64,000 nt of DNA from positions 128,001 through 192,000 of the forward strand of contig JAUVNS010000011.1 of NCBI GenBank assembly GCA_030599585.1. The letters run 5' to 3'. Shown here in pieces: positions 1,850 to 40,420 of this stretch. Position 1 is the stretch's first letter. Each line of letters starts with the position of its first letter. This DNA is from Promethearchaeota archaeon (GTDB taxonomy: Archaea; Asgardarchaeota; Lokiarchaeia; Sigyniarchaeales; SOKP01). Both the position numbers and the translations under genes were made by a program. Below the pieces are notes generated by a model, which made no database searches, was not told where the DNA came from, and saw only the letters and a program-made list of their open reading frames with translations.

Positions 1850-4800
1850 CTATTTAGATTTCCAATGTTTTTTTCCCTTCTTGGTTTCTACCATTACCAA
1901 TCCCTTGCGCTCTAATTCCTTCAGTTTTATCTGTAAAAAACGAGCATCCATCATATCTTTTATTTTCATTTTAAATATTAAAGCTGTTATTGCTTGCCAA
2001 TCTTCAGATAATGCGTCTATTATTTTCTCTGTAGTAATTATTGGCAATTGAGTTTGAGTTAGCGCGGGTTTAGGCTGTTGAGCAGTAATTACTGGTTCTT
2101 TTTTAACCGGTTGTTGATGAATTATTTCACCCTTGGCAATTTGTAATTGTTTTCTTTTTTTGGCTATGGTTCCCGGTGGAACTGGTTCGATTTTTAATGG
2201 TGCCTTTGCTATTTTGTCCAAGGGTATCCTTTTTTCTGGTTTTCCTTTATCATAAAATTCTTGAATAAATTTAATAATTTCTGATTTTCGAGCTTTAGAT
2301 GGTAGAGAAATGTTCTTTTCCATACAATATTCTTTTAGTTGATTGATAGTCCAGTTAAGAAGAGTTCTTACACTAAGAAGCTCATCACTAGGTTTAATTT
2401 TTTCAGGAATGCTCTTTTCCTGAACACCCGTGTCTTCCCATTGAATCTCAACTTTTTTAGGTTCTAATTCAATAGGCTCTATCTTTTCAGGTTCGGATGG
2501 TTTCTTTTCTTTAATTTTAGGAGGCACTTTTACTCCAATTGCATTTCTCATCAAGTCTTCCAATTCCTTTTCTGAAATTTTCCCCTTATATTTTCCTTCT
2601 CCTTGTGATACGATATTATAGGCACTTTGAACGAATATTGGGATATATTTCTCAATTAAACCAGCTCTTTTCTCGCTCTTTCGAATATTCGCTCTACGAT
2701 TAAGATATACCCTCAAACGTCTTCCTATGGCCTCAAGACAAAATTTAATCTCTTTAAGTAAATCTTCGTCTTCAGCTAATGCGTTTTTCGATTGAGATTT
2801 AAACATCAAATGGACATAAGGCCCTGAAATATTTACGAGAAGTTTAATTGGACCTTTTGGTAGATTATTATCATACACATCTAATTTATAATTTTTCCAA
2901 TTCACAGATTGAACTGCTTTAGTGATAGCACAATCGGCACTATCTCTTAACTTAGGAGTTCTATTAACGAATCTTGAGAGAACATCCCTGGAACGTTTGG
3001 GAGTTTCAAGTTTCTTCGAATCGTTACAATACGCCAATGCAGCTTCAACAACATATGCTAATCCTTTGCCCGAAGTAGGTGGTCTTGTTTCTGCGCTTAC
3101 AAAATCATCATCTTTAGTGTAAATTTCGGTGAAGAAATCAAAAACATCGCGATAAGAATCTTTCTGAACTTCTGTAACAGAATTTAATTTTTTTTCAATT
3201 GTTCTCTGAAATTCTTCTGGTTCTAAATACTGGTCTTTAATATCAATACTAACGAGAATTCTGGAGTTGAAATTTTTAACATCTTCAGGTGTTAGTATAG
3301 TATCTTTTATTTTATTTTCGATGTGTTGTTGTTTGTCTTGATCTCTCTTCAATTCTTCTTGAAGAATATCATAAGACATTTTTACATTTTCAATAGGGGC
3401 ATCAAAATCATCAATATTCTCCGAGATTTTAAGTCCAATTTCTTTAATCAGCGTATTTTCTAATACAATATCTCCAACTGGAATCGCTGTATCTGTTGGT
3501 GGTGACATATATTTGATAGATTTAAAGGCGTGGAAAAGTGAGTTAAATTGGTCGTTAGTTAAATCAGAGGGTTTTACTTTTGAAATTTGAACTTCGTTGA
3601 TTAAATCTTCCAGTTCTGCACGATTATTTAATTTTTTAACCTCTATTAAGCCAGTATTATCTTTAAAAATCTTTTCTAAATCATTTTTAATTTTTTCTCT
3701 TTCTTGGAAAATTCTATCTACATCTTTTAGTAGATTACTAACTTCTTTTTCAATTTTTTTTATGTCTTTTTTTGTCTCGGATTTATCAATACGATTGCGG
3801 TGTTTTTTTATTTCTCTATATATTTTTTCTAAATCTTTATCAAAATTGTTATTTTTATCCATAGATTCCCAGTATTTAATCTTCAATTCTTCTGAATTAA
3901 TATTGTAGATAATCAATTTATCGCGCGGTTTTGTTGAACGTCCGTAAACCCTAGTTTCATACTTAAATAAGTATATTAAATCACTTCTCTTCACTAATTT
4001 GTTTATGAATCCATTTTTAAGTATCATTAGAGATAGTTTATCTTCTAAGTTTCTTTCTGCAATTTTCAAAATCTCTTTTGCTGTTTTTGAACTCAATCTC
4101 ACGAAATTATCCTGTAGAAAAGCGGATATCGTAAAATTTTCTGATTTTGTTAAGAGATCTTGTAAATCACCAATATTAGTTGATGATGGGTGAGGTTTAG
4201 CATATTTTGGTTGTTTTGGGAAACTTGAGACTAATCGTCTGTAAATCCATTCTTTTCCATATGGATCTATAAAAATAAGAGTTATGTGGGGATTCAATAA
4301 AGCGGTTTCTTTAATGTAGGTATCTACGAAACCACGAGTGTATTTTACATTTAAATAGTTCAATTTTATATATGTCCCATGTAAGAACGGGCTACTACAG
4401 TCTGTAGGACGAACTAAATATTTCTTTTCATTTTTAGAGGTTGTAAAAAATTCTGAAACAGTAGCATATATAGTATTTTTTGACTTTGATACTGCTACTA
4501 TTGGTTTCCCAGTTGTATTTTGGGCATCGCTAAATGCACTCGGGGCACCGAAACCCTGACTTCCACGGGTTTGCTTCAATTCAAGGCTTTTTGAAGAAGC
4601 TAGATACTTACCAAATTTCCGCATATCTCCTTTGTGCATGCCAATACCATTATCAAAAATTTCGAATGTATAACTCATAACATTTTTCTGGGATAATTCA
4701 GAAGTTAAAAAGGTAGCAGCTTCAGATTCTCTCAAGCGAATAATAACAATTGGTTCAAGATCTACAATGGGCTCTACAGGTTTTATGATTTCGTTCATAT

Positions 4801-31621: not shown

Positions 31622-34018
31622 CTATTTTTTAGGTTTCTTCTTAAATTTAATGTAGAGCGCTTTATCGAATAAATTTCCAATTTTTAAGGCAATTTTGTTT
31701 GAAATTTTGTATCGTTCTCCTTCTAACATCCCTTTAATTTCTTCGGGATTCGGAGAGCGATGTAGTCTCTCAGAGAGAATTTCATTAATAAATGTTGCTA
31801 CTTCATGTTTTATTCTTTCTATATCGGGTAATTTCATATCTGGAACGAAAGATTTAATTTTTTCGACCGCAAACAAATAAAACTCGCAGAATCTAGAAAA
31901 AATATCGCCCTTTAATCCACAATGTAATTGAATTTGTTCAGTTAGTGTTTTTGTATCTTTTTTGCTCCAATAAAATTGTTGTGGATTCACCCCACGACGG
32001 CTAATTCCCATTAAATTTGATGTAATTTTACGTTCAATCCAATTAAATGTGCTTTCTTGACGCAACTTAATGATTTCTTTTTTCTTATCATCTTCTTTTT
32101 TTTTTTTTTCTACATTCACACTTTCAATTCTAACTTTTTCAAATTCTACTAATTCTTCAAACCTTTTTATTAGATCGTAAGCGATACAATACGATACAGG
32201 AGATACAAGGTCCGCTTTTAGTTTTAAGGGTGATATCCCTTTATAAACAAAACTTTCTTGGTTCTTTAACTCTGTCATACTATCTTTGAGAGATTTTATT
32301 TTCAAACGTGATAATATAAATCCATTTATAAGAAAAACCTGATTAACTGCATTAAAAACTACTACAAGTTCTTTTTGCCTTTTCATGGTTCTCTCGATAC
32401 TTAACTCCTCCAATTTAACTTGAACCCAATCTTCAAAACCCTTGTTTTCTGTAACCACCATTAAAGCCCGGGAGTAAATTGCCTTATCATTTGAAATTAT
32501 ACCATATAACTCTATTATCCTGCTTAATTGCCTTAGAATTTTCGATAATAAATTGTAAAATAAATCTGTTACTATATTACTTATTATCTCATCATAGTCA
32601 AGAAGAAGTAGTATTTGGGAGTAATTGCTTAAATTCAAACCTTGAAAGAAAATCTTGTCAACGGTTTGTTTTTTCCTTACAAACTCTCTCAGATCATTTA
32701 TATTAATCTCTGTCTTATCCTCTAAAATATCCCATAACTCGATATATTCGGTTTCATTTCTATAGAGAATTTTAAATAAATCAAATTCAACATTATCAGC
32801 AACTTTTGTAATAAATTTCTCAAGATACGGAAATTTCATGCTACATAAGGCTTTTTTTGCCACATTTATCAAGTTTTTTTGATTGTCATTTAATAAGATT
32901 AAATCTTGTTTTTTTATATTATATCTTATCATGCTTTTCTGTACATTTTCAGCTAACTCATAATCAACATTCATTAAATGTAAAGTATCCTTAATTCCCC
33001 TCTTATTAAGTAAAAAAATAGCATCCTCAAAACTTGATTCATTTAAACTTTGAAGGAAGTAGATAAAATCATTTGGATTCTTTTTTAACTGCTTAATTAG
33101 GGCGATTTTTAATTCTGAAAGAATTATCTTTTCAAATTCATCATAATTAAGATCTTCCTTAAAGGCGTTTTCAATTGACTTGATAGTTTCTTTTTTTAAA
33201 TTATTCCCTTCAATAAAAGTTTTTAAGCCTGATATAGATATAGGAAATTTATTTAATTCATATTCCATTATACGTTTCTTTATCATCCGGATAGACATTG
33301 TTTGGATTTGTAATTCCTTATAGGATTTGAATTCAAATTGGTTTTGCATCCTCTCGATTATTCTATTTAGAGTAAAAACCTCAATGAATTTATCTTCTTT
33401 CTCTTCCTTCTTCAATTGTTCTTCAATTGGAAGCGAGACGCCTTTAAACGCAGCGCTTTCTTCTAAAATTTCATTTTTTACGATTTCATTTAAACCAATG
33501 ATGTCTCCTATAAAATCGTAAAAATAATAGGATGGTGATTTGGATATAATATTTAACAGTTCTCGTTCGATTTGATTTTCGATTTCCTCTATTCTTTTTC
33601 TTCTTTGAGATTGTTGTAGGCGACCTAGCCTTTCGTCTATTAACAATGATAAGAACATATTTTCTAAATTAATAATTTCATCGAATAGAGCTCTTTCTAA
33701 TTCAAAAGAATTTTTTAAAAAAATCTCAACTTCTTCCATTAGAATATGTTTCTCGTCCATTTCAAGCTGTTTAGTCGAATCAACTGTCAACTTGTTTGTA
33801 TCTAAAGATTCTTCTACTTTTATACCCATGTAATGGTACAAATGAACTGCTGCTGTAGCGATTAGGAGAGATCGTAATGTAGGTTCTTTACGAATCAATT
33901 CGAAAATTTTTTCTTTATCTGCTTCTCTTTTCAAATGGGAAATTATTAAATCTACGGTCTGAAAAAACCTTGAAGCACTTTCAGTTGCTGTTGATTTTCT
34001 TTTTACTCCGCTTATCAT
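31622..34018 (-). CDS. Large helical hypothetical protein
   Basis: ~800-codon ORF; ATG 34018 overlaps the upstream TGA (ATGA coupling). Confidence 0.8.
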   Translation of the reverse strand: MISGVKRKSTATESASRFFQTVDLIISHLKREADKEKIFELIRKEPTLRSLLIATAAVHLYHYMGIKVEESLDTNKLTVDSTKQLEMDEKHILMEEVEIFLKNSFELERALFDEIINLENMFLSLLIDERLGRLQQSQRRKRIEEIENQIERELLNIISKSPSYYFYDFIGDIIGLNEIVKNEILEESAAFKGVSLPIEEQLKKEEKEDKFIEVFTLNRIIERMQNQFEFKSYKELQIQTMSIRMIKKRIMEYELNKFPISISGLKTFIEGNNLKKETIKSIENAFKEDLNYDEFEKIILSELKIALIKQLKKNPNDFIYFLQSLNESSFEDAIFLLNKRGIKDTLHLMNVDYELAENVQKSMIRYNIKKQDLILLNDNQKNLINVAKKALCSMKFPYLEKFITKVADNVEFDLFKILYRNETEYIELWDILEDKTEININDLREFVRKKQTVDKIFFQGLNLSNYSQILLLLDYDEIISNIVTDLFYNLLSKILRQLSRIIELYGIISNDKAIYSRALMVVTENKGFEDWVQVKLEELSIERTMKRQKELVVVFNAVNQVFLINGFILSRLKIKSLKDSMTELKNQESFVYKGISPLKLKADLVSPVSYCIAYDLIKRFEELVEFEKVRIESVNVEKKKKEDDKKKEIIKLRQESTFNWIERKITSNLMGISRRGVNPQQFYWSKKDTKTLTEQIQLHCGLKGDIFSRFCEFYLFAVEKIKSFVPDMKLPDIERIKHEVATFINEILSERLHRSPNPEEIKGMLEGERYKISNKIALKIGNLFDKALYIKFKKKPKK

Positions 34019-36342
34019 AATTTTTTTATCCACTCTCTATATACTTCCTTAAAATTATCTGCAATATCATATTTTGCTTTATTGTGCCAGTATTTAAACT
34101 CAAAAACATGAAATAAGTCAGCGCTGAATAAATCAACTTCTTCCGCAGTTAATTCTTGTTTTAAAATTAAAGAAACTGGCCGAGGTATTAATTTTGAGAA
34201 ATATCTGAGCTCATTTTTTTTCAAGTAATTATAAAATGTGTTCTGTTCATCAATACTAAGATAATTTTTAGGGATAACTTTTTCTGGCTCAATTTTAAAT
34301 AAGTTAATCTCTTTTTCAACTTTATTTTGGATATATTTTGGAAATTCAGTTTTTATACCAATACAAAATTCATACTGTTTATAGAAATCTATCAAAATTT
34401 CTTTTTCTACATCATTTGAAATTCTTAAAATGTATTTGTCTAAAAATTTGAGGAATGCTTCTGGTTCCTGCTCGTTTGATTCACGTTCTTCTAAATATTT
34501 TATAAATTCAAATAATGTTTCGTCTAAAGACCACTTCCGTATTTCTTCAATACTAAAAAATTTCTTAGCATAATCCTTTATCCATTCTAATATATATGTT
34601 TTCCAAGTTAAATTTATCGCTCCTATTCGTTTTTCTAGGAAGCGATGGAATCTATTTGCAAAAGTTACTGGATCACTAATTTCTCCATCTGGTTCTTCTT
34701 TAAGAAATCGATTAATAGTAGTATATCTCAGAATGTAGCTTAATAAATATTTTAATTCATCTGAGAACCGTTCAAATTTCTTTACATGCGAGTCTATTAT
34801 TTTTGAATCTTTTTCCATTTGGATTTCGGCGAATGCAATTAAGTCACTAATGTTTAAGTTAATATTACCATAGAACGATTTGATGTTGTCATTTATTAAC
34901 TTTTTAAATTCTTTATTTAATATTTCTTCGTTAAAAACACCAACTTTTAATAATACAAATGGATTTATCTCTATCTGCGATATTAAATGTTGCTCGAATT
35001 TACCCAAAATATTTTGCCCTAAATTTTTAGAAGGTTTTTGTTCATTTTCAAATTTTTCATGTAAAATTCTAGTAAAGTGAGAGATCAAAGTATTCAATCT
35101 ACGGTGTGATAAATATCGCGGAAACGAGTTTCTAATACAACTAATGCTATTTTTAAGGACTTCAGCAAAATAATTTATTACAGAACCTAATTCACTTGCC
35201 CTCAGCTTTTCTTCACTAATAATTGAAAGAGTCATTGAATTTATAGCTAATTCGCTGATAGTTCGATAAAAATCAATACTTTCTTCAGAATTTTCAATTA
35301 TAAATGAGTTATATTTTTCTAACAACTCCGAGATATTACCTATTTCGCCGGTTGTTAGGAATTTCTTAGAAATTTTTAAAAAATTATCAACTTTGACATT
35401 AAAATCAGTTAACATTTTTTCCATATAGGAAATAATTTCGACACCAGAGAAGAGTTTTTGATTTTTACCAAAACTTTCCTCTATTTTAGCTATAAAAAAT
35501 GATATAACTTTTTCTTGGATTTCATCAGTTGTCCCAGTATTAGCTAATTTAAGTAAATTGGTTCCTAGAATTAACGTTTTTTCTATAATAAAATTTGCAC
35601 TCGGCTCTGAAATAGCATATTTAAGGTGATCTATGGTTGACTTTCCAATATATGGTGATTTAAGCCGATCATATTTTTGATTTGTAAACTTAATCTCAAT
35701 AGGGCTTTTATTCCAGAGATAATCTACATCCGTTCTTATCGATCCATAAGTGGACAACATTTCTTTTTCAGTTGGTAAAGAAACGCTTAAGCCTATTAAT
35801 TTTTTATTCCATTTATCCTCAATCAAATCCCCATAAAGTTTTTTGCTAAATCGAGTAGCGAATTTATTATATACCTGAATTTTTTTTTGATGTTCTAATC
35901 CGGGATGATTAGAAAACTCTTCTACTTCGTAAAATAATTTACTTATATTGTTAATTGATTCTCTTGATTTGTGTGGATCTAGATATCCCGTTTCTGGTTT
36001 TAAAGCAAGTAATAAACTTTCACACTCCTTATATTTGCCGGGAATGAGTACCATTGATTTTGGGTAAATGTTTATTTGAGCGTCTTTTTGATCGAAATTG
36101 TACAACTCGAATTCTATTGAAAATACTTCAGAACCAGCAAAATCCCTCAACATAGCATTATACATTCGAAGGAATGTTATTACTTCCTTAGAAAGCTCGT
36201 TAACCATTTCTTTAGTTAGTTTTCCTGGTCCTATTACATCTCCCGCTATTAAATCTGTAGGGCTAGAGTACCCAAAGATTAATGAAAATTGAAAATTAAT
36301 AGACTCACGTGTAGTTATCATAATTTCGTTTTTTTTTTTCAA
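34015..36342 (-). CDS. Large helical hypothetical protein
   Basis: 775-codon ORF; no recognised motif. Confidence 0.8.
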   Translation of the reverse strand: MKKKNEIMITTRESINFQFSLIFGYSSPTDLIAGDVIGPGKLTKEMVNELSKEVITFLRMYNAMLRDFAGSEVFSIEFELYNFDQKDAQINIYPKSMVLIPGKYKECESLLLALKPETGYLDPHKSRESINNISKLFYEVEEFSNHPGLEHQKKIQVYNKFATRFSKKLYGDLIEDKWNKKLIGLSVSLPTEKEMLSTYGSIRTDVDYLWNKSPIEIKFTNQKYDRLKSPYIGKSTIDHLKYAISEPSANFIIEKTLILGTNLLKLANTGTTDEIQEKVISFFIAKIEESFGKNQKLFSGVEIISYMEKMLTDFNVKVDNFLKISKKFLTTGEIGNISELLEKYNSFIIENSEESIDFYRTISELAINSMTLSIISEEKLRASELGSVINYFAEVLKNSISCIRNSFPRYLSHRRLNTLISHFTRILHEKFENEQKPSKNLGQNILGKFEQHLISQIEINPFVLLKVGVFNEEILNKEFKKLINDNIKSFYGNINLNISDLIAFAEIQMEKDSKIIDSHVKKFERFSDELKYLLSYILRYTTINRFLKEEPDGEISDPVTFANRFHRFLEKRIGAINLTWKTYILEWIKDYAKKFFSIEEIRKWSLDETLFEFIKYLEERESNEQEPEAFLKFLDKYILRISNDVEKEILIDFYKQYEFCIGIKTEFPKYIQNKVEKEINLFKIEPEKVIPKNYLSIDEQNTFYNYLKKNELRYFSKLIPRPVSLILKQELTAEEVDLFSADLFHVFEFKYWHNKAKYDIADNFKEVYREWIKKL

Positions 36343-36558
36343 ATCTATTTTTATAAAAGATAAAAATCATACATTTTAACTTTTAGCAATAGATTTTTTT
36401 TGCATTTTGTGTATTACTGTTTATCATTATTTTTCTATGTATTAATTAATAATTATAGAGAAGAAAAAATAAAGAAATAAAAAGTATCAATATTATATTA
36501 ATAATAGTTAAGTGAAGTAAAACCTCAAATAGCAATCTACCGTGGATGGTGATACGAA

Positions 36559-36963
36559 TTGGAGTTTGGTACAGATCTTGGAATTGGGCCCGATGAAATC
36601 GAAAAAATAAGTCCTCAAATTACTTTTATCACTTCGAACGCAGATATAGAAGCCATCGCACTTGTGAGCTTGGAAGGCTATCAGATCGCTTTTTCAGCGC
36701 TTCCGCAATATGAGGTTGATGGCGACCAGTTTTGTGGACTAGCTAGCGCACTTTTAATGACTGGAAGTTCAACAATTAAAACACTCTTTCAAGAAGATTT
36801 AAGCGAAATAATTGTGAGAGCTGAGAATGGTTATGTTATTGTTAGTAACGCAGGTCGTCTCGTAATCGTATGTGCAGGAACTATTATTGATACATTGATG
36901 AAAACTGTTAAAGTAATGAGAGTTGCTGCAAAGAATTTAGCTATGGTTTTTGAACAAAAATAA
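36559..36963 (+). CDS. Roadblock/LC7 domain protein
   Basis: IEAIALVSLEGYQI, LSEIIVRAENGYVIV; GGTGA RBS before TTG. Confidence 0.85.
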   Translation: MEFGTDLGIGPDEIEKISPQITFITSNADIEAIALVSLEGYQIAFSALPQYEVDGDQFCGLASALLMTGSSTIKTLFQEDLSEIIVRAENGYVIVSNAGRLVIVCAGTIIDTLMKTVKVMRVAAKNLAMVFEQK

Positions 36964-37050
36964 TAAAAATTAATTTTTTTATTGAAGAATAAGTTTATAT
37001 TGCTTCGATAATAATTTTATCAATACAAATACATTTTATGGTTAATATTG

Positions 37051-37122
37051 ATGTTCGCTAAAATAAACCTCCTTAAATGTTGGCGAGGACTATGGCGTTT
37101 TAAAACGCTTTTTCAATGGTAA
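37051..37122 (+). promoter_or_regulatory. Putative Trp leader peptide / attenuator (MFAKINLLKCWRGLWRFKTLFQW)
   Basis: 3 TGG codons in 23 codons upstream of trpB2; hairpin GCGTT-TTAA-AACGC followed by T5; TATA-like TTTATAT near 36994. Confidence 0.6.
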
Positions 37123-37273
37123 AACCATAAATTTTGCTCTGACTAGTTTTTAACATCATTTTTTAATAACAAGTATTGCATCTGCAATCAAGCATTATTA
37201 TTATTGATTTCCAATTTTAAGATGAGACATCATTTAAATTTGATGATGGAAAAATAGTTAAAAGGAAATAAAT

Positions 37274-38674
37274 ATGACAGATTTTTATAATACAAGAATT
37301 TTACTTGAACCGAATGAAATACCAAAAGAGTGGGTTAACATTGTACCAGATTTACCTGCTCCCATGACGCCCTTAATAAATCCAATGGATGGAAAACCTG
37401 CACCTCCTGAACTTGCATTTGCAATATTTCCAAAGGAATGTGTACTTCAGGAAATATCTCAAGAACCTACAATTCAAATTCCTAAGGAATTAAGGGAGCT
37501 TTACGCTAGATCTTATAGGCCTACACCGCTTCATAGAGCATATGGTTTAGAGAAAGAACTTGGAATTGAAAGCGAAAATATCAAAATTTTCTATAAAAAT
37601 GAGTCGGTTTCTCCTACGGGATCTCACAAACCAAACACAGCTCTAGCTCAAGCTTACTATTCTAAAAGAGATGGAGTCGAGGAATTGATAACTGAAACAG
37701 GAGCAGGTCAATGGGGTTCTGCCTTATCTTACGGATGTAATTTATTTGACATAAAGTGTACTGTTTACATGGTGAGAGCTAGCTTTATCCAAAAACCGGG
37801 AAGAAAAATATTGATGAGAGCTTTTAATGGTCAAGTTCATGCAAGCCCTTCAAAATTAACAGAATCTGGAAAATCTTATTATGAAAAAGACCCAGATCAC
37901 CCAGGAAGTTTAGGAATTGCTATATCTGAAGCGGTTGAACATAGTTTGAGAAGTGAGAAATCGAGATATTCTTTAGGGAGCGTTGTGAATTTCGTTCTTT
38001 TACATCAAACGATCATAGGACAAGAGGTTAAAGCACAACTACAAAAAGCTAACGTGGAGCCTGATGTTCTGATTGGATGTATGGGAGGGGGGTCTAATTT
38101 AGGAGGTCTAATGATTCCTTTCGCAAAGGAAAAATTACACGGAAAATATCCTGATTTAGAGATCGTGGGAGTAGAACCCAGAGCGTGCCCAAGTGTAAAC
38201 AAAGGAGAATATAGATGGGACTTTGGAGATTCTGCCAAAAAAGCTCCAATTTTAAAAATGTATACATTAGGTCATAATTTTATTCCAAGCCCAATTCATG
38301 CAGGAGGATTAAGATATCACGGAATGGCTCCAATAATATCTATATTAGCAAAGAAAAAGATAATTTCCTCAGTTATGCATCACCAAACTGAAGTTATTGG
38401 AGCAGGTTTGCTTTTTGCTAAGACAGAAGGAATTCTGCCTGCGCCTGAAGCGGCTCATGCTGTGAAAGAAGCGATTGATCAAGCCTTGAGAGCTAAAGAG
38501 AACTCCGAAAAGAAAACAATCGTTTTCTGCTTAAGTGGACATGGATTTTTTGATTTATTAGCTTATAAAGAATATATGGTTGGTAATTTGATAGATTATG
38601 AACTACCAAGCGATGATATCCAAAAAGCTTTAAACGCTCCTGATATGCCTAATATTGATGATACGCAGTTTTAA
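37274..38674 (+). CDS. trpB2: Tryptophan synthase beta chain, TrpB2 type
   Basis: YRPTPLHRA, GSHKPN PLP lysine, TETGAGQWG, GGGSN, HAGGLRYHG, LSGHG. Confidence 0.95.
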   Translation: MTDFYNTRILLEPNEIPKEWVNIVPDLPAPMTPLINPMDGKPAPPELAFAIFPKECVLQEISQEPTIQIPKELRELYARSYRPTPLHRAYGLEKELGIESENIKIFYKNESVSPTGSHKPNTALAQAYYSKRDGVEELITETGAGQWGSALSYGCNLFDIKCTVYMVRASFIQKPGRKILMRAFNGQVHASPSKLTESGKSYYEKDPDHPGSLGIAISEAVEHSLRSEKSRYSLGSVVNFVLLHQTIIGQEVKAQLQKANVEPDVLIGCMGGGSNLGGLMIPFAKEKLHGKYPDLEIVGVEPRACPSVNKGEYRWDFGDSAKKAPILKMYTLGHNFIPSPIHAGGLRYHGMAPIISILAKKKIISSVMHHQTEVIGAGLLFAKTEGILPAPEAAHAVKEAIDQALRAKENSEKKTIVFCLSGHGFFDLLAYKEYMVGNLIDYELPSDDIQKALNAPDMPNIDDTQF

Positions 38675-38766
38675 ATACAATTAAGGACTTTTTACACACT
38701 TTTTTTTCATTTTTAATAAAGATTTTAAAATTTCTCAGATAATATCTAGAAGAAAACATAAAGAGA

Positions 38767-39861
38767 TTGTTATTTTTGGATGCACTATCTATAATAATTA
38801 TTTGTATTCTGTATATTTATGGCTTAATTTCTCTTTATACTGCTTTTTTGGCGAAAAAAAGAAATGAAAAAGGGGCTTTCATTAATAACCTTGTAAATTC
38901 ATTAATCCTCATTGTTAGCATTACAATTAATTTATCAATAAATCTTCTAAATATTTCCGTTATTGGGTTCATAGTATTTCCTTTTGACATATTTATGATA
39001 ATTTTTATAATATTTTTCTTACCTCATTTTTTATTATCCGTAAATAGAGAAAAAAGAAAGGTTAGATTAAAAGAGAAACAAACAGAAGAAGAAAATTTTA
39101 ATTTGGCTGAAGAATTACCTTTTAAATACGAACTTTACAGAAAAATAACACATTTAGTAGTCTTAGGAATCGCTTTTTTCTATTTTACGCTTGGATTTTT
39201 GGTTCAAAATATTTTTATTTATATTCTAGAGCTTTTCCCAGATATTGTTTCTGAGTTCTTCTTCTCAATCTATAATATTGAAGCAAATAAAATGATCTTT
39301 ACTCAATACTTGGTAGTTTTTTTAGTTGGAGTATCCTTAATTGGGTTACTTACAGCAGATTTTATTAGAATTTTAAAACCAAACATTTACCCGTTAAAAT
39401 CAATTAATAGAATTCTTAGGAAAAAGGAACGGCACATGAGATTAGGTCCACATATTTCTATGGGAATTGGTTGTTTTTCAATTATAATAATGTATGGCCC
39501 TTTCCAGCCTGTTGGGCCAATTATTATATGTATATCGATGACTATGTCTATTTTTGGAGATATGGCTGCTAATTTGGTGGGAAGAAAATTCGGGCATTAC
39601 AACATTCGAAAAACTAAAAAGACTTACGAGGGGTTAATTGCTGGAATGAGCATAGCATACATCTCAGGTATTATTACATTACTATTTATAAATCAATTAT
39701 ATCCAATTAACCCCTTTAGTATGATAATCCTTCCCTCTATTGGTACTCTTGTGATAGGATTTATAGACTATTTAGATTTAGATGTTGACGATAATTTGTC
39801 ATTTAATTTCATACTTTCAACTACTCTTTTCGTTATTTCATTATTCATTTTGCGTTTATAA
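38767..39861 (+). CDS. Dolichol/phytol/diacylglycerol kinase-like membrane protein
   Basis: RKITH, GDMAANLVGRKFG, KKTYEG, DDN; multiple TM segments. Confidence 0.8.
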   Translation: MLFLDALSIIIICILYIYGLISLYTAFLAKKRNEKGAFINNLVNSLILIVSITINLSINLLNISVIGFIVFPFDIFMIIFIIFFLPHFLLSVNREKRKVRLKEKQTEEENFNLAEELPFKYELYRKITHLVVLGIAFFYFTLGFLVQNIFIYILELFPDIVSEFFFSIYNIEANKMIFTQYLVVFLVGVSLIGLLTADFIRILKPNIYPLKSINRILRKKERHMRLGPHISMGIGCFSIIIMYGPFQPVGPIIICISMTMSIFGDMAANLVGRKFGHYNIRKTKKTYEGLIAGMSIAYISGIITLLFINQLYPINPFSMIILPSIGTLVIGFIDYLDLDVDDNLSFNFILSTTLFVISLFILRL

Positions 39862-39916: not shown

Positions 39917-40420
39917 ATGAGCGAAGAAAAATTAAAAATAGATAAAATAAAGAAGGGGACAGTTATCGACCATATTGATGGCGGTTACGCTTTAACTATT
40001 CTGAACTTAACTGGACTTGGAGAATCTCCTAATCTAATGACAATTGGTGTTAATGTTTCTTCAATGAAATACAATAAAAAGGATATTATTAAGATAGAGG
40101 GTGTTTTTCTCAATCAGATTCAACTTCAGCAAATTTCAATCCTTTCGCCAAATTCAAAGATATCCTTGATTGAAGATTATAAAGTAATCGAGAAAAAGAA
40201 GGTAAAACTCCCAGATAATATCAAAAGTCTAATTTTATGTCGAAGTAATACGTGTATTTCAAATTCTGGTGAACCTATTGATACAGAATTTAATGTTCTA
40301 GAAGAAAAGCCATTAAAAATTCAATGTGTATATTGCAATAGGATATATAAATTGGATGAAATTGTTTTCAGTTCTAAAGAAAAAATTGAAAAAAGAGTAA
40401 AACAATCAATCGAATTATAA
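39917..40420 (+). CDS. pyrI: Aspartate carbamoyltransferase regulatory chain
   Basis: GTVIDHI, KKDIIKIE, C.S.TCIS and CVYC Zn ligands. Confidence 0.95.
   Translation: MSEEKLKIDKIKKGTVIDHIDGGYALTILNLTGLGESPNLMTIGVNVSSMKYNKKDIIKIEGVFLNQIQLQQISILSPNSKISLIEDYKVIEKKKVKLPDNIKSLILCRSNTCISNSGEPIDTEFNVLEEKPLKIQCVYCNRIYKLDEIVFSSKEKIEKRVKQSIEL

Follow-up and report, generated by a model that had tools for sequence, protein, structure and literature searches.

The gene for a TrpB-like enzyme at 37274-38674 (+ strand) of the window, by which we mean the whole 64,000-nucleotide stretch of DNA analysed here, is separated from the Roadblock/LC7 protein gene on its 5' side (36559-36963) by a spacer with a short, Trp-rich open reading frame (ORF). 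This layout raises the question whether an Asgard archaeon gauges its tryptophan supply by letting a ribosome read a leader peptide. To our knowledge, there is little documentation of archaeal gene regulation at stages later than transcription initiation, and we found no description of an archaeal leader-peptide sensor in the literature searched by full text, which took in part of the journals. Through the sequence comparisons described below, the element appears very probably to be a ribosome-read tryptophan gauge.

The downstream gene had been called trpB2 in the initial annotation, and this call is sound: the product is a stand-alone TrpB-like PLP enzyme of the TrpB2 type (NF009057, E = 1e-192; TIGR01415 above the cut-off). 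No family match to TrpA, indole-glycerol-phosphate synthase (IGPS) or anthranilate synthase (TrpE) was found in the genome, which is 100% complete by markers; therefore TrpB2 stands alone, and trpB2 is the sole Trp-pathway gene found in this genome. Presumably the enzyme makes tryptophan from scavenged indole. The nearest relatives that bear a name are MAGs labelled Promethearchaeota (Asgard).

Through letter-by-letter checking, we confirmed the leader ORF of 23 codons at 37051-37122 (+ strand), whose peptide is MFAKINLLKCWRGLWRFKTLFQW. It runs from an ATG at 37051 to a TAA at 37120-37122 and contains TGG codons at 37081, 37093 and 37117, all as had been annotated. The ORF is predicted to be translatable and lies upstream of and co-oriented with trpB2, as in a trpL-type leader, and the cluster of cognate codons near the ORF end that marks such leaders is present too, with two to six Trp codons over the copies of the element. 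The P1 5' arm at 37035-37043 (+ strand, described below) contains a GGU that is a weak Shine-Dalgarno candidate (16S rRNA 3' end ...GGAUCACCUCCU), and this arm may double as a ribosome-binding site for the leader ORF.

The trpB2 loci were gathered from 40 relatives, and 30 loci of the order were scored for an upstream ORF. A small ORF ending in W-x-W or W-x-W-x-W was present in 28 of the 30, located 115-360 nt 5' of trpB2, with frame, Trp codons and stop kept. As a control, a small upstream ORF ending in WxW was found in just nine of 78 trpB2 loci from bacteria and other archaea; some of these nine resemble genuine bacterial WWW leaders and two are Asgard. Small WWW or WWWW ORFs 5' of trpB2 were seen in a Smithella MAG, an uncultured bacterium and a Bacteroidales MAG (L054, L082 and L087), and these are probably ordinary bacterial Trp leader peptides. 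The single-contig genome L030, which belongs to another family, lacked any W-x-W ORF up to 700 nt from trpB2 and gave just a weak W-x6-W candidate.

Altogether 50 distinct copies of the element were obtained, of which 46 were tabulated for the ORF. The start codon is ATG in 41, GTG in two and TTG in three, mostly at model position 18; the remaining four copies also have the leader ORF, with a longer upstream extension. The tabulated ORFs contain two to six Trp codons (mode four), and the stop codon, for which TGA, TAA and TAG all occur, follows one or two codons past the last Trp in 38 of them. The distance from the leader start to the first conserved TGG is 24, 27, 30 or 45 nt, every value being a multiple of three. 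The usual forms in the genus are M-V-T-x5-C-W-Q-W-P-W-R-S-stop or ...F-W-R-W-Q-W-P-W-R-F-stop. The DNA of the order's other families cannot be aligned; there, the ORF ends in ...W-A-W or ...W-P-W with the stop within 0-3 codons, and a strong hairpin starts at the last TGG, with the stop inside its loop or 5' arm. The conservation of the start position and of the stop, together with the multiple-of-three distances, is the signature of a reading frame, more than of an RNA motif.

The covariance model R1 matched 98 of the 151 genomes of the same order, mostly in single copy, and there is one copy in this genome; all matches fall within one family and comprise 13 genera. Every retrieved copy, one odd variant excepted, lies 5' of trpB2 or, in genomes with extra copies, of trpD-trpC-trpF, which were identified through Pfam (trpD by PF00591 and PF02885, trpC by PF00218, trpF by PF00697). 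Seven genomes contain two or three copies; one copy precedes trpB2, and in five of the seven another precedes trpD, trpC and trpF. A copy at L142 (G094:C17:8061-11464, minus strand) contains a Phe- and Trp-rich ORF, MKAINCLFSFWFFFWRF (...F-S-F-W-F-F-F-W-R-F), and precedes genes for a CxxCxxCC-domain protein and a beta-keto acid cleavage enzyme, with no Trp gene.

The window's copy is a derived, weaker variant of the element. It belongs to a clade of five genomes in which the middle TGG was lost, so that the peptide reads W-R-G-L-W, and in which a 2-nt deletion in the loop of hairpin P3 removed the usual stop; the ORF consequently became seven codons longer and reaches the foot of P1. Two conserved Trp codons are left in the window leader (37081-37083 and 37093-37095), the same count as in E. 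coli trpL. The third, at 37117-37119, is lineage-specific: it occurs in this genome only, the sisters having CGG or AGG there, and it overlaps an invariant motif described below. Because the window ORF continues through P3 as far as the foot of P1, this copy may follow other kinetics than the majority form.

Two helices make up the first domain of the leader RNA (+ strand). P1 pairs a 5' arm TTTATGGTT at 37035-37043, 8 nt 5' of the leader start codon, with a 3' arm AACCATAAA at 37123-37131 and thus encloses the leader ORF. This long-range pairing had been proposed in the initial annotation; the letters are complementary and the pairs covary. P3 is the hairpin GGCGTT-TTAA-AACGCT at 37094-37109, which begins at the last conserved Trp codon, its 5' arm being that codon and the following Arg codon, and in most relatives the stop codon is located in its loop. 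In an unfitted alignment of 22 genus sequences P1 was 85% and P3 90% paired with compensatory changes present, which gives modest support to the covariation of both. With 53 sequences P1 was 86.5% paired with two-sided changes in seven of eight pairs, one pair being GC in 22, AU in 21 and GU in six sequences, and P3 was 92% paired with two-sided changes in four of five pairs. Taken together, 11 of the 13 pairs changed on both sides and the observed values were reached by none of 500 shuffles, a count that exaggerates the significance since this alignment was fitted to the covariance model and its sequences are related. In distant copies P1 is maintained with wholly different letters. Through RNAalifold, the full leader alignment of 338 columns gave just a 4-bp core of P3, narrower alignments being required for the rest, and the leader as a whole has an unremarkable fold energy (z -0.96).

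A terminator-like scan of 36900-37330 gave a sole match, P3 followed by TTTTT at 37109-37113, where shuffles expect 0.1. The hairpin with its T run, as annotated, is therefore present in the window; as a conserved terminator it did not hold, because the T run directly 3' of P3 is shortened to T2-T4 or absent in many relatives. The motif CAnnGG (CAATGG at 37114-37119, + strand) has its C, A, G and G invariant in the 22 genus sequences. Single-sequence folds suggested that the Trp codons pair with the CAnnGG region (P2), but this helix was 78% paired and no better than shuffles. Alternative pairing between domain 1 (P3 3' arm, P1 3' arm, Trp codons or P1 5' arm) and domain 2 gave energies equal to those of shuffles (z about 0) with no common site, and the local ATGGT/ACCAT pairing of the initial annotation is not conserved. 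Across these three tests no conserved antiterminator overlapping the terminator and the Trp codons was found, and the competing pairings once read as a trpL-type switch found no support. Since neither a terminator/antiterminator pair nor a conserved T run after P3 was found, the classical four-segment model is inapplicable as such. We also considered a C/D-box sRNA, for which the boxes are too distant from each other and are not conserved.

A genome scan for small intergenic ORFs rich in a single amino acid, the genome-wide look for analogous leaders that had been suggested, revealed two more candidates. An Ile-rich ORF ending in ...FIEIISEIIIQ-stop lies 132 nt 5' of the isoleucine-tRNA ligase gene (contig C28, about 118,560-118,640, + strand; leader L154:279-362, ileS L154:501-3353) and is enclosed by a long-range helix of 9-10 bp, GGATGTGGA / TCCACATCC. 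It is kept as ...MIEIISTIIII-stop in all three closest ileS orthologues, all of another genus. A search of five same-genus genomes for this IleRS type gave nothing at E<=1e-60, and contig C28 could thus be a transfer or a binning contaminant. A Leu-rich ORF ending in ...VLLQALLLSLL-stop lies 159 nt 5' of the leucine-tRNA ligase gene (contig C21, minus strand; leader L155 about 3145-3237, leuS L155:101-2986) and is kept in six of seven other orthologous leuS loci of four genera, with the Leu codons changing synonymously. Its stop adjoins a hairpin of about 13 bp, AGCGAnACAAATCC...GGATTTGTTnCGCT, with a U-rich loop and a compensatory change in one lineage. In both leaders the helix or hairpin begins at the end of the ORF or close by. 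For H, C, M, T, R, G, P, A, V, Q, D, E or S, this crude genome-wide scan gave no obviously cognate leader ORF. We consider it rather probable that a family of Asgard archaea uses ribosome-read leader peptides to gauge how much of an amino acid is available, for Trp (trpB2 and trpD-C-F), Ile (ileS) and Leu (leuS).

The explanation that competes best is nascent-peptide arrest, where the C-terminal W-x-W-x-W-R peptide would stall the ribosome at or near the stop codon with free tryptophan bound and block expression of the downstream gene, comparable to TnaC or the fungal arginine attenuator peptide. TnaC of E. coli has a leader ORF with a critical Trp, arrest near the stop and factor-dependent termination as output (10.1101/2021.03.31.437805). 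The conserved part of the Asgard leader is an extreme C-terminal peptide motif with the stop close behind it, and its spaced W-x-W, with frequent Pro or Gln, is unlike the tandem codons of bacterial attenuators. But the Trp residues are separated by various others (Q, P, R, A, S, T, H, L) and differ in number between copies as given above, and in the window clade an 8-codon tail follows W-RGL-W; the position of the Arg codon in the P3 stem accounts for its conservation. TnaC also differs in that it senses free Trp and induces a catabolic operon, and its W12, D16 and P24 are absent from the Asgard peptide, in which W-x-W-x-W-R is the motif. Moreover, this genome's Ile and Leu leaders obey a cognate-codon logic, which is a better fit to sensors of tRNA charging. 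We regard arrest as unlikely and prefer the reading of the leader as a ribosome-read gauge, for which the factor-dependent termination of TnaC is a plausible analogue of archaeal FttA/aCPSF1.

A little less likely still is tryptophan sensing independent of translation, by a structured RNA or by a site to which a protein or tRNA binds, with the UGG(C) repeats as binding motif in the manner of TRAP or a T-box, the ORF being incidental. The UGGC repeats with a 6-nt period would suit such a site, as would the conserved helices, the second hairpin domain with its sequence-conserved loop, and the invariant CAnnGG motif, which has no assigned partner. But a binding site needs no fixed start codon, no frame-preserving length changes and no swaps of TGA, TAA and TAG at one place, and the window clade lost the middle UGG with the frame kept. 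A TRAP-regulated leader would carry 9-11 (G/U)AG repeats; only two to six UGG are present, and no TRAP homologue (PF02081) was found in this marker-complete genome. In an Rfam search of 35500-39000 with E up to 10, neither Trp_leader (RF00513) nor T-box (RF00230) nor any other family matched the leader, and two chance-level matches lay elsewhere. Three cognate pairings in one genome also favour a general ribosome-read mechanism over a Trp-specific binding motif.

Upstream of P1, a TATA box TTTATATT was found at 36994-37001 (+ strand) with the purine-rich AGAATAAG just 5' of it. A TATA-like box lies 33-39 nt 5' of the element in about 45 of the 50 distinct copies, trpD-type copies included, and from this spacing the transcript is predicted to start about 10 nt 5' of P1, at 37022-37028 and near 37025 in the window. 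Downstream of P1 follows a U-rich tract at 37132-37164 (+ strand; T4 at 37132-37135, T5 at 37147-37151 and T6 at 37159-37164), which contains candidate archaeal termination or pause signals; the archaeal polymerase terminates at oligo-U without needing a hairpin. A run of at least five T occurs within 60 nt past P1 in 36 of the 50 copies, against nine of 50 for A runs. T makes up 40-57% of these stretches; the tract is common yet not universal, and would partly be expected from T-rich sequence.

Past the tract lies a small hairpin ATTGCA-TC-TGCAAT (37175-37188, + strand), which occurs with varied sequence in most genus members. The second domain follows with a long, imperfect hairpin GCATTA ... 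ATTG-ATTTC-CAAT ... AAGATG (37192-37224, + strand) with a conserved apical loop, common to trpB2-type and trpD-type leaders of several genera; it covaries, with AT/TA flips and G-U pairs, and was 86% paired in 47 sequences versus 76% on average and at most 80% in shuffles. A last hairpin CATCAT-loop-ATGATG (37228-37248, + strand) has a TATA-like TTTAAAT in its loop and a stem that differs by lineage (CACAT/ATGTG, CATTTTT/AAAAATG, or GCATC/GATGT with a G-U pair; loops of 3-9 nt), and it is missing in about seven of 22 genus members. The Shine-Dalgarno-like AAAGGAA and the trpB2 start codon at 37274 occupy 37261-37276 (+ strand), relatives having GGTGAT or AAGGA 6-12 nt before the ATG. Sequestration of this Shine-Dalgarno by the domain-2 loop (AUUUCC/GGAAAU in the window) was rejected, as by eye it is not conserved where the Shine-Dalgarno is GGUGAU.

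These hairpins bear on another possibility, that the ORF belongs to a separate small gene, a Trp-rich micropeptide or an sRNA ending at the U tracts and acting in trans, while trpB2 has its own promoter near 37233. The TATA-like TTTAAAT lies 40 nt 5' of the trpB2 start codon, and trans-acting leader-derived peptides and sRNAs are known in Sinorhizobium (PMC7298713, PMC7968998). But these letters are the loop of a covarying stem and read CTAAG, TTAAG or CTTAGG elsewhere, so a second promoter was rejected as the main reading. The interval between leader and trpB2 forms covarying hairpins with G-U pairs and hence behaves as RNA of the sense strand, and the same two-domain leader also precedes trpD operons, an added role in trans still being compatible with this. 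A separate gene is accordingly quite improbable, more so than the binding site, and by these sequence features the leader is probably continuous with the trpB2 transcript. Metatranscriptome pieces were found on the Roadblock gene and on trpB2 with none on 36967-37209; the four RNA-labelled runs (three probably DNA, one a true metatranscriptome) are low-depth assembled contigs of related strains and are uninformative on starts, ends or absence.

That the window ORF is a chance frame in AT-rich intergenic DNA is next to impossible, for although the fold energy is ordinary and one of the three Trp codons lineage-specific, the ORF is conserved across 13 genera and about 0.003 ORFs with at least three Trp are expected in the 310-nt sense-strand spacer before trpB2. 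The figure derives from 12 ORFs with at least three Trp among the 9,691 small ORFs (10-40 aa) counted in this genome's crude intergenic DNA, about 544 kb in all. The earlier remark that three Trp codons are unlikely by chance thus stands in its substance, and the codon at 37117, found in this genome only, is incidental.

We therefore return to the ribosome-read gauge. It is likely, going by frame conservation and covariation, that the leader, starting from the TATA box at 36994, is a cis-acting, translation-dependent Trp sensor within the about 250-nt 5' leader of the trpB2 mRNA. In the mechanism that we propose, a ribosome would load on the leader ORF while the RNA emerges. When charged tRNA-Trp is scarce, it would pause at the Trp codons 37081 and 37093, which sit just before and within the P3 5' arm, inside the domain closed by P1, and the paused ribosome would cover that arm and keep P3 from forming. 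It does not physically cover either arm of P1, which counts against the mechanism; a second ribosome, probably queued at the start codon, would fit exactly up to the pause site and mask some of the P1 5' arm, so that P1 too would stay open. Once a ribosome has read to the end and left, P1 and P3 could fold, and in the folded state the polymerase would be more prone to terminate prematurely or pause at the U-rich tracts 37109-37113 and 37132-37164. The unfolded state would permit read-through into trpB2 and so more indole salvage when tryptophan is short.

The translation of the ORF, the Trp-dependent pausing, the direction of control and the output at transcription termination we infer from the arrangement of these features, and from them we likewise infer attenuation, that is, regulated premature termination. 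Termination or pausing at the U-rich tracts, intrinsic or through FttA/aCPSF1 acting on ribosome-free RNA, is put forward tentatively as the most likely output; alternatively, domain 2 could act on translation or on RNA stability.

Compared with the enterobacterial trpL (RF00513), the Asgard element shares a short leader ORF, Trp codons clustered near its end, a stop few codons on, a hairpin starting at the regulatory codons, and a structured leader before Trp-synthesis genes; E. coli TrpL ends in ...WWRTS and the majority Asgard form in ...WQWPWRS. The differences are that the Asgard Trp codons are spaced (W-x-W-x-W) whereas the bacterial ones are tandem, that the ORF is enclosed by a long-range helix and followed by a second conserved hairpin domain, that no terminator/antiterminator pair was found, and that the host is archaeal. 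Of the trpL-attenuation layout first proposed, the Trp-codon ORF in a structured leader before a Trp gene remains, and the comparison did not support a conserved terminator or the competing pairings. The element would work like a bacterial leader-peptide attenuator yet lies outside that family: it has no Trp_leader or T-box match and a different architecture, and the genome has no TRAP homologue.

The Ile and Leu ORFs before ileS and leuS, with a hairpin at the stop codon, resemble the bacterial aminoacyl-tRNA synthetase attenuators of E. coli pheST and Streptomyces trpRS1, although the host here is archaeal, the structures are not homologous and the function here is predicted only. In mycobacteria (polycysteine leaderless uORF attenuators; bioRxiv 10.1101/834739) and in Corynebacterium (ilvB uORF; PMC10272879), short ORFs rich in cognate codons control biosynthetic genes, and these depart from the classical four-segment model like the Asgard element. 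Both of these systems are bacterial, and the mycobacterial uORFs are leaderless, whereas in the Asgard leader a predicted 5' UTR of some 25 nt, which includes a pairing arm, precedes the start codon.

If the proposal is true, translation-coupled control so far described only in bacteria would operate here with the archaeal (eukaryote-like) polymerase and termination machinery. The RNA architecture behind it, in which a long-range helix surrounds the ORF, the last regulatory codon opens a hairpin and U-rich tracts come after, would be unrelated to that of bacterial attenuators. Such a sensor would show that the closest prokaryotic relatives of eukaryotes make regulatory use of transcription-translation coupling, and would be a natural test case for how the ribosome affects the archaeal polymerase or its termination factor. 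It would also supply a compact Trp-responsive genetic part for archaea. For the physiology, these sediment organisms without a Trp pathway seem to rely on TrpB2 for salvaging indole, a route that tryptophan shortage apparently turns on.

Further genes of the neighbourhood were noted. Two big neighbouring ORFs of 803 and 775 aa, with no Pfam match, lie at 31622-36342 on the minus strand. Right after trpB2, at 38767-39861 (+ strand), a 364-aa membrane protein is encoded, with synteny kept across the family and no Pfam or NCBIfam match; its language-model look-alikes are Asgard 'dolichol kinase / CTP_transf_1-like' clusters, of high similarity score, which serve as a lead only. The next gene, at 39917-40420, encodes PyrI.
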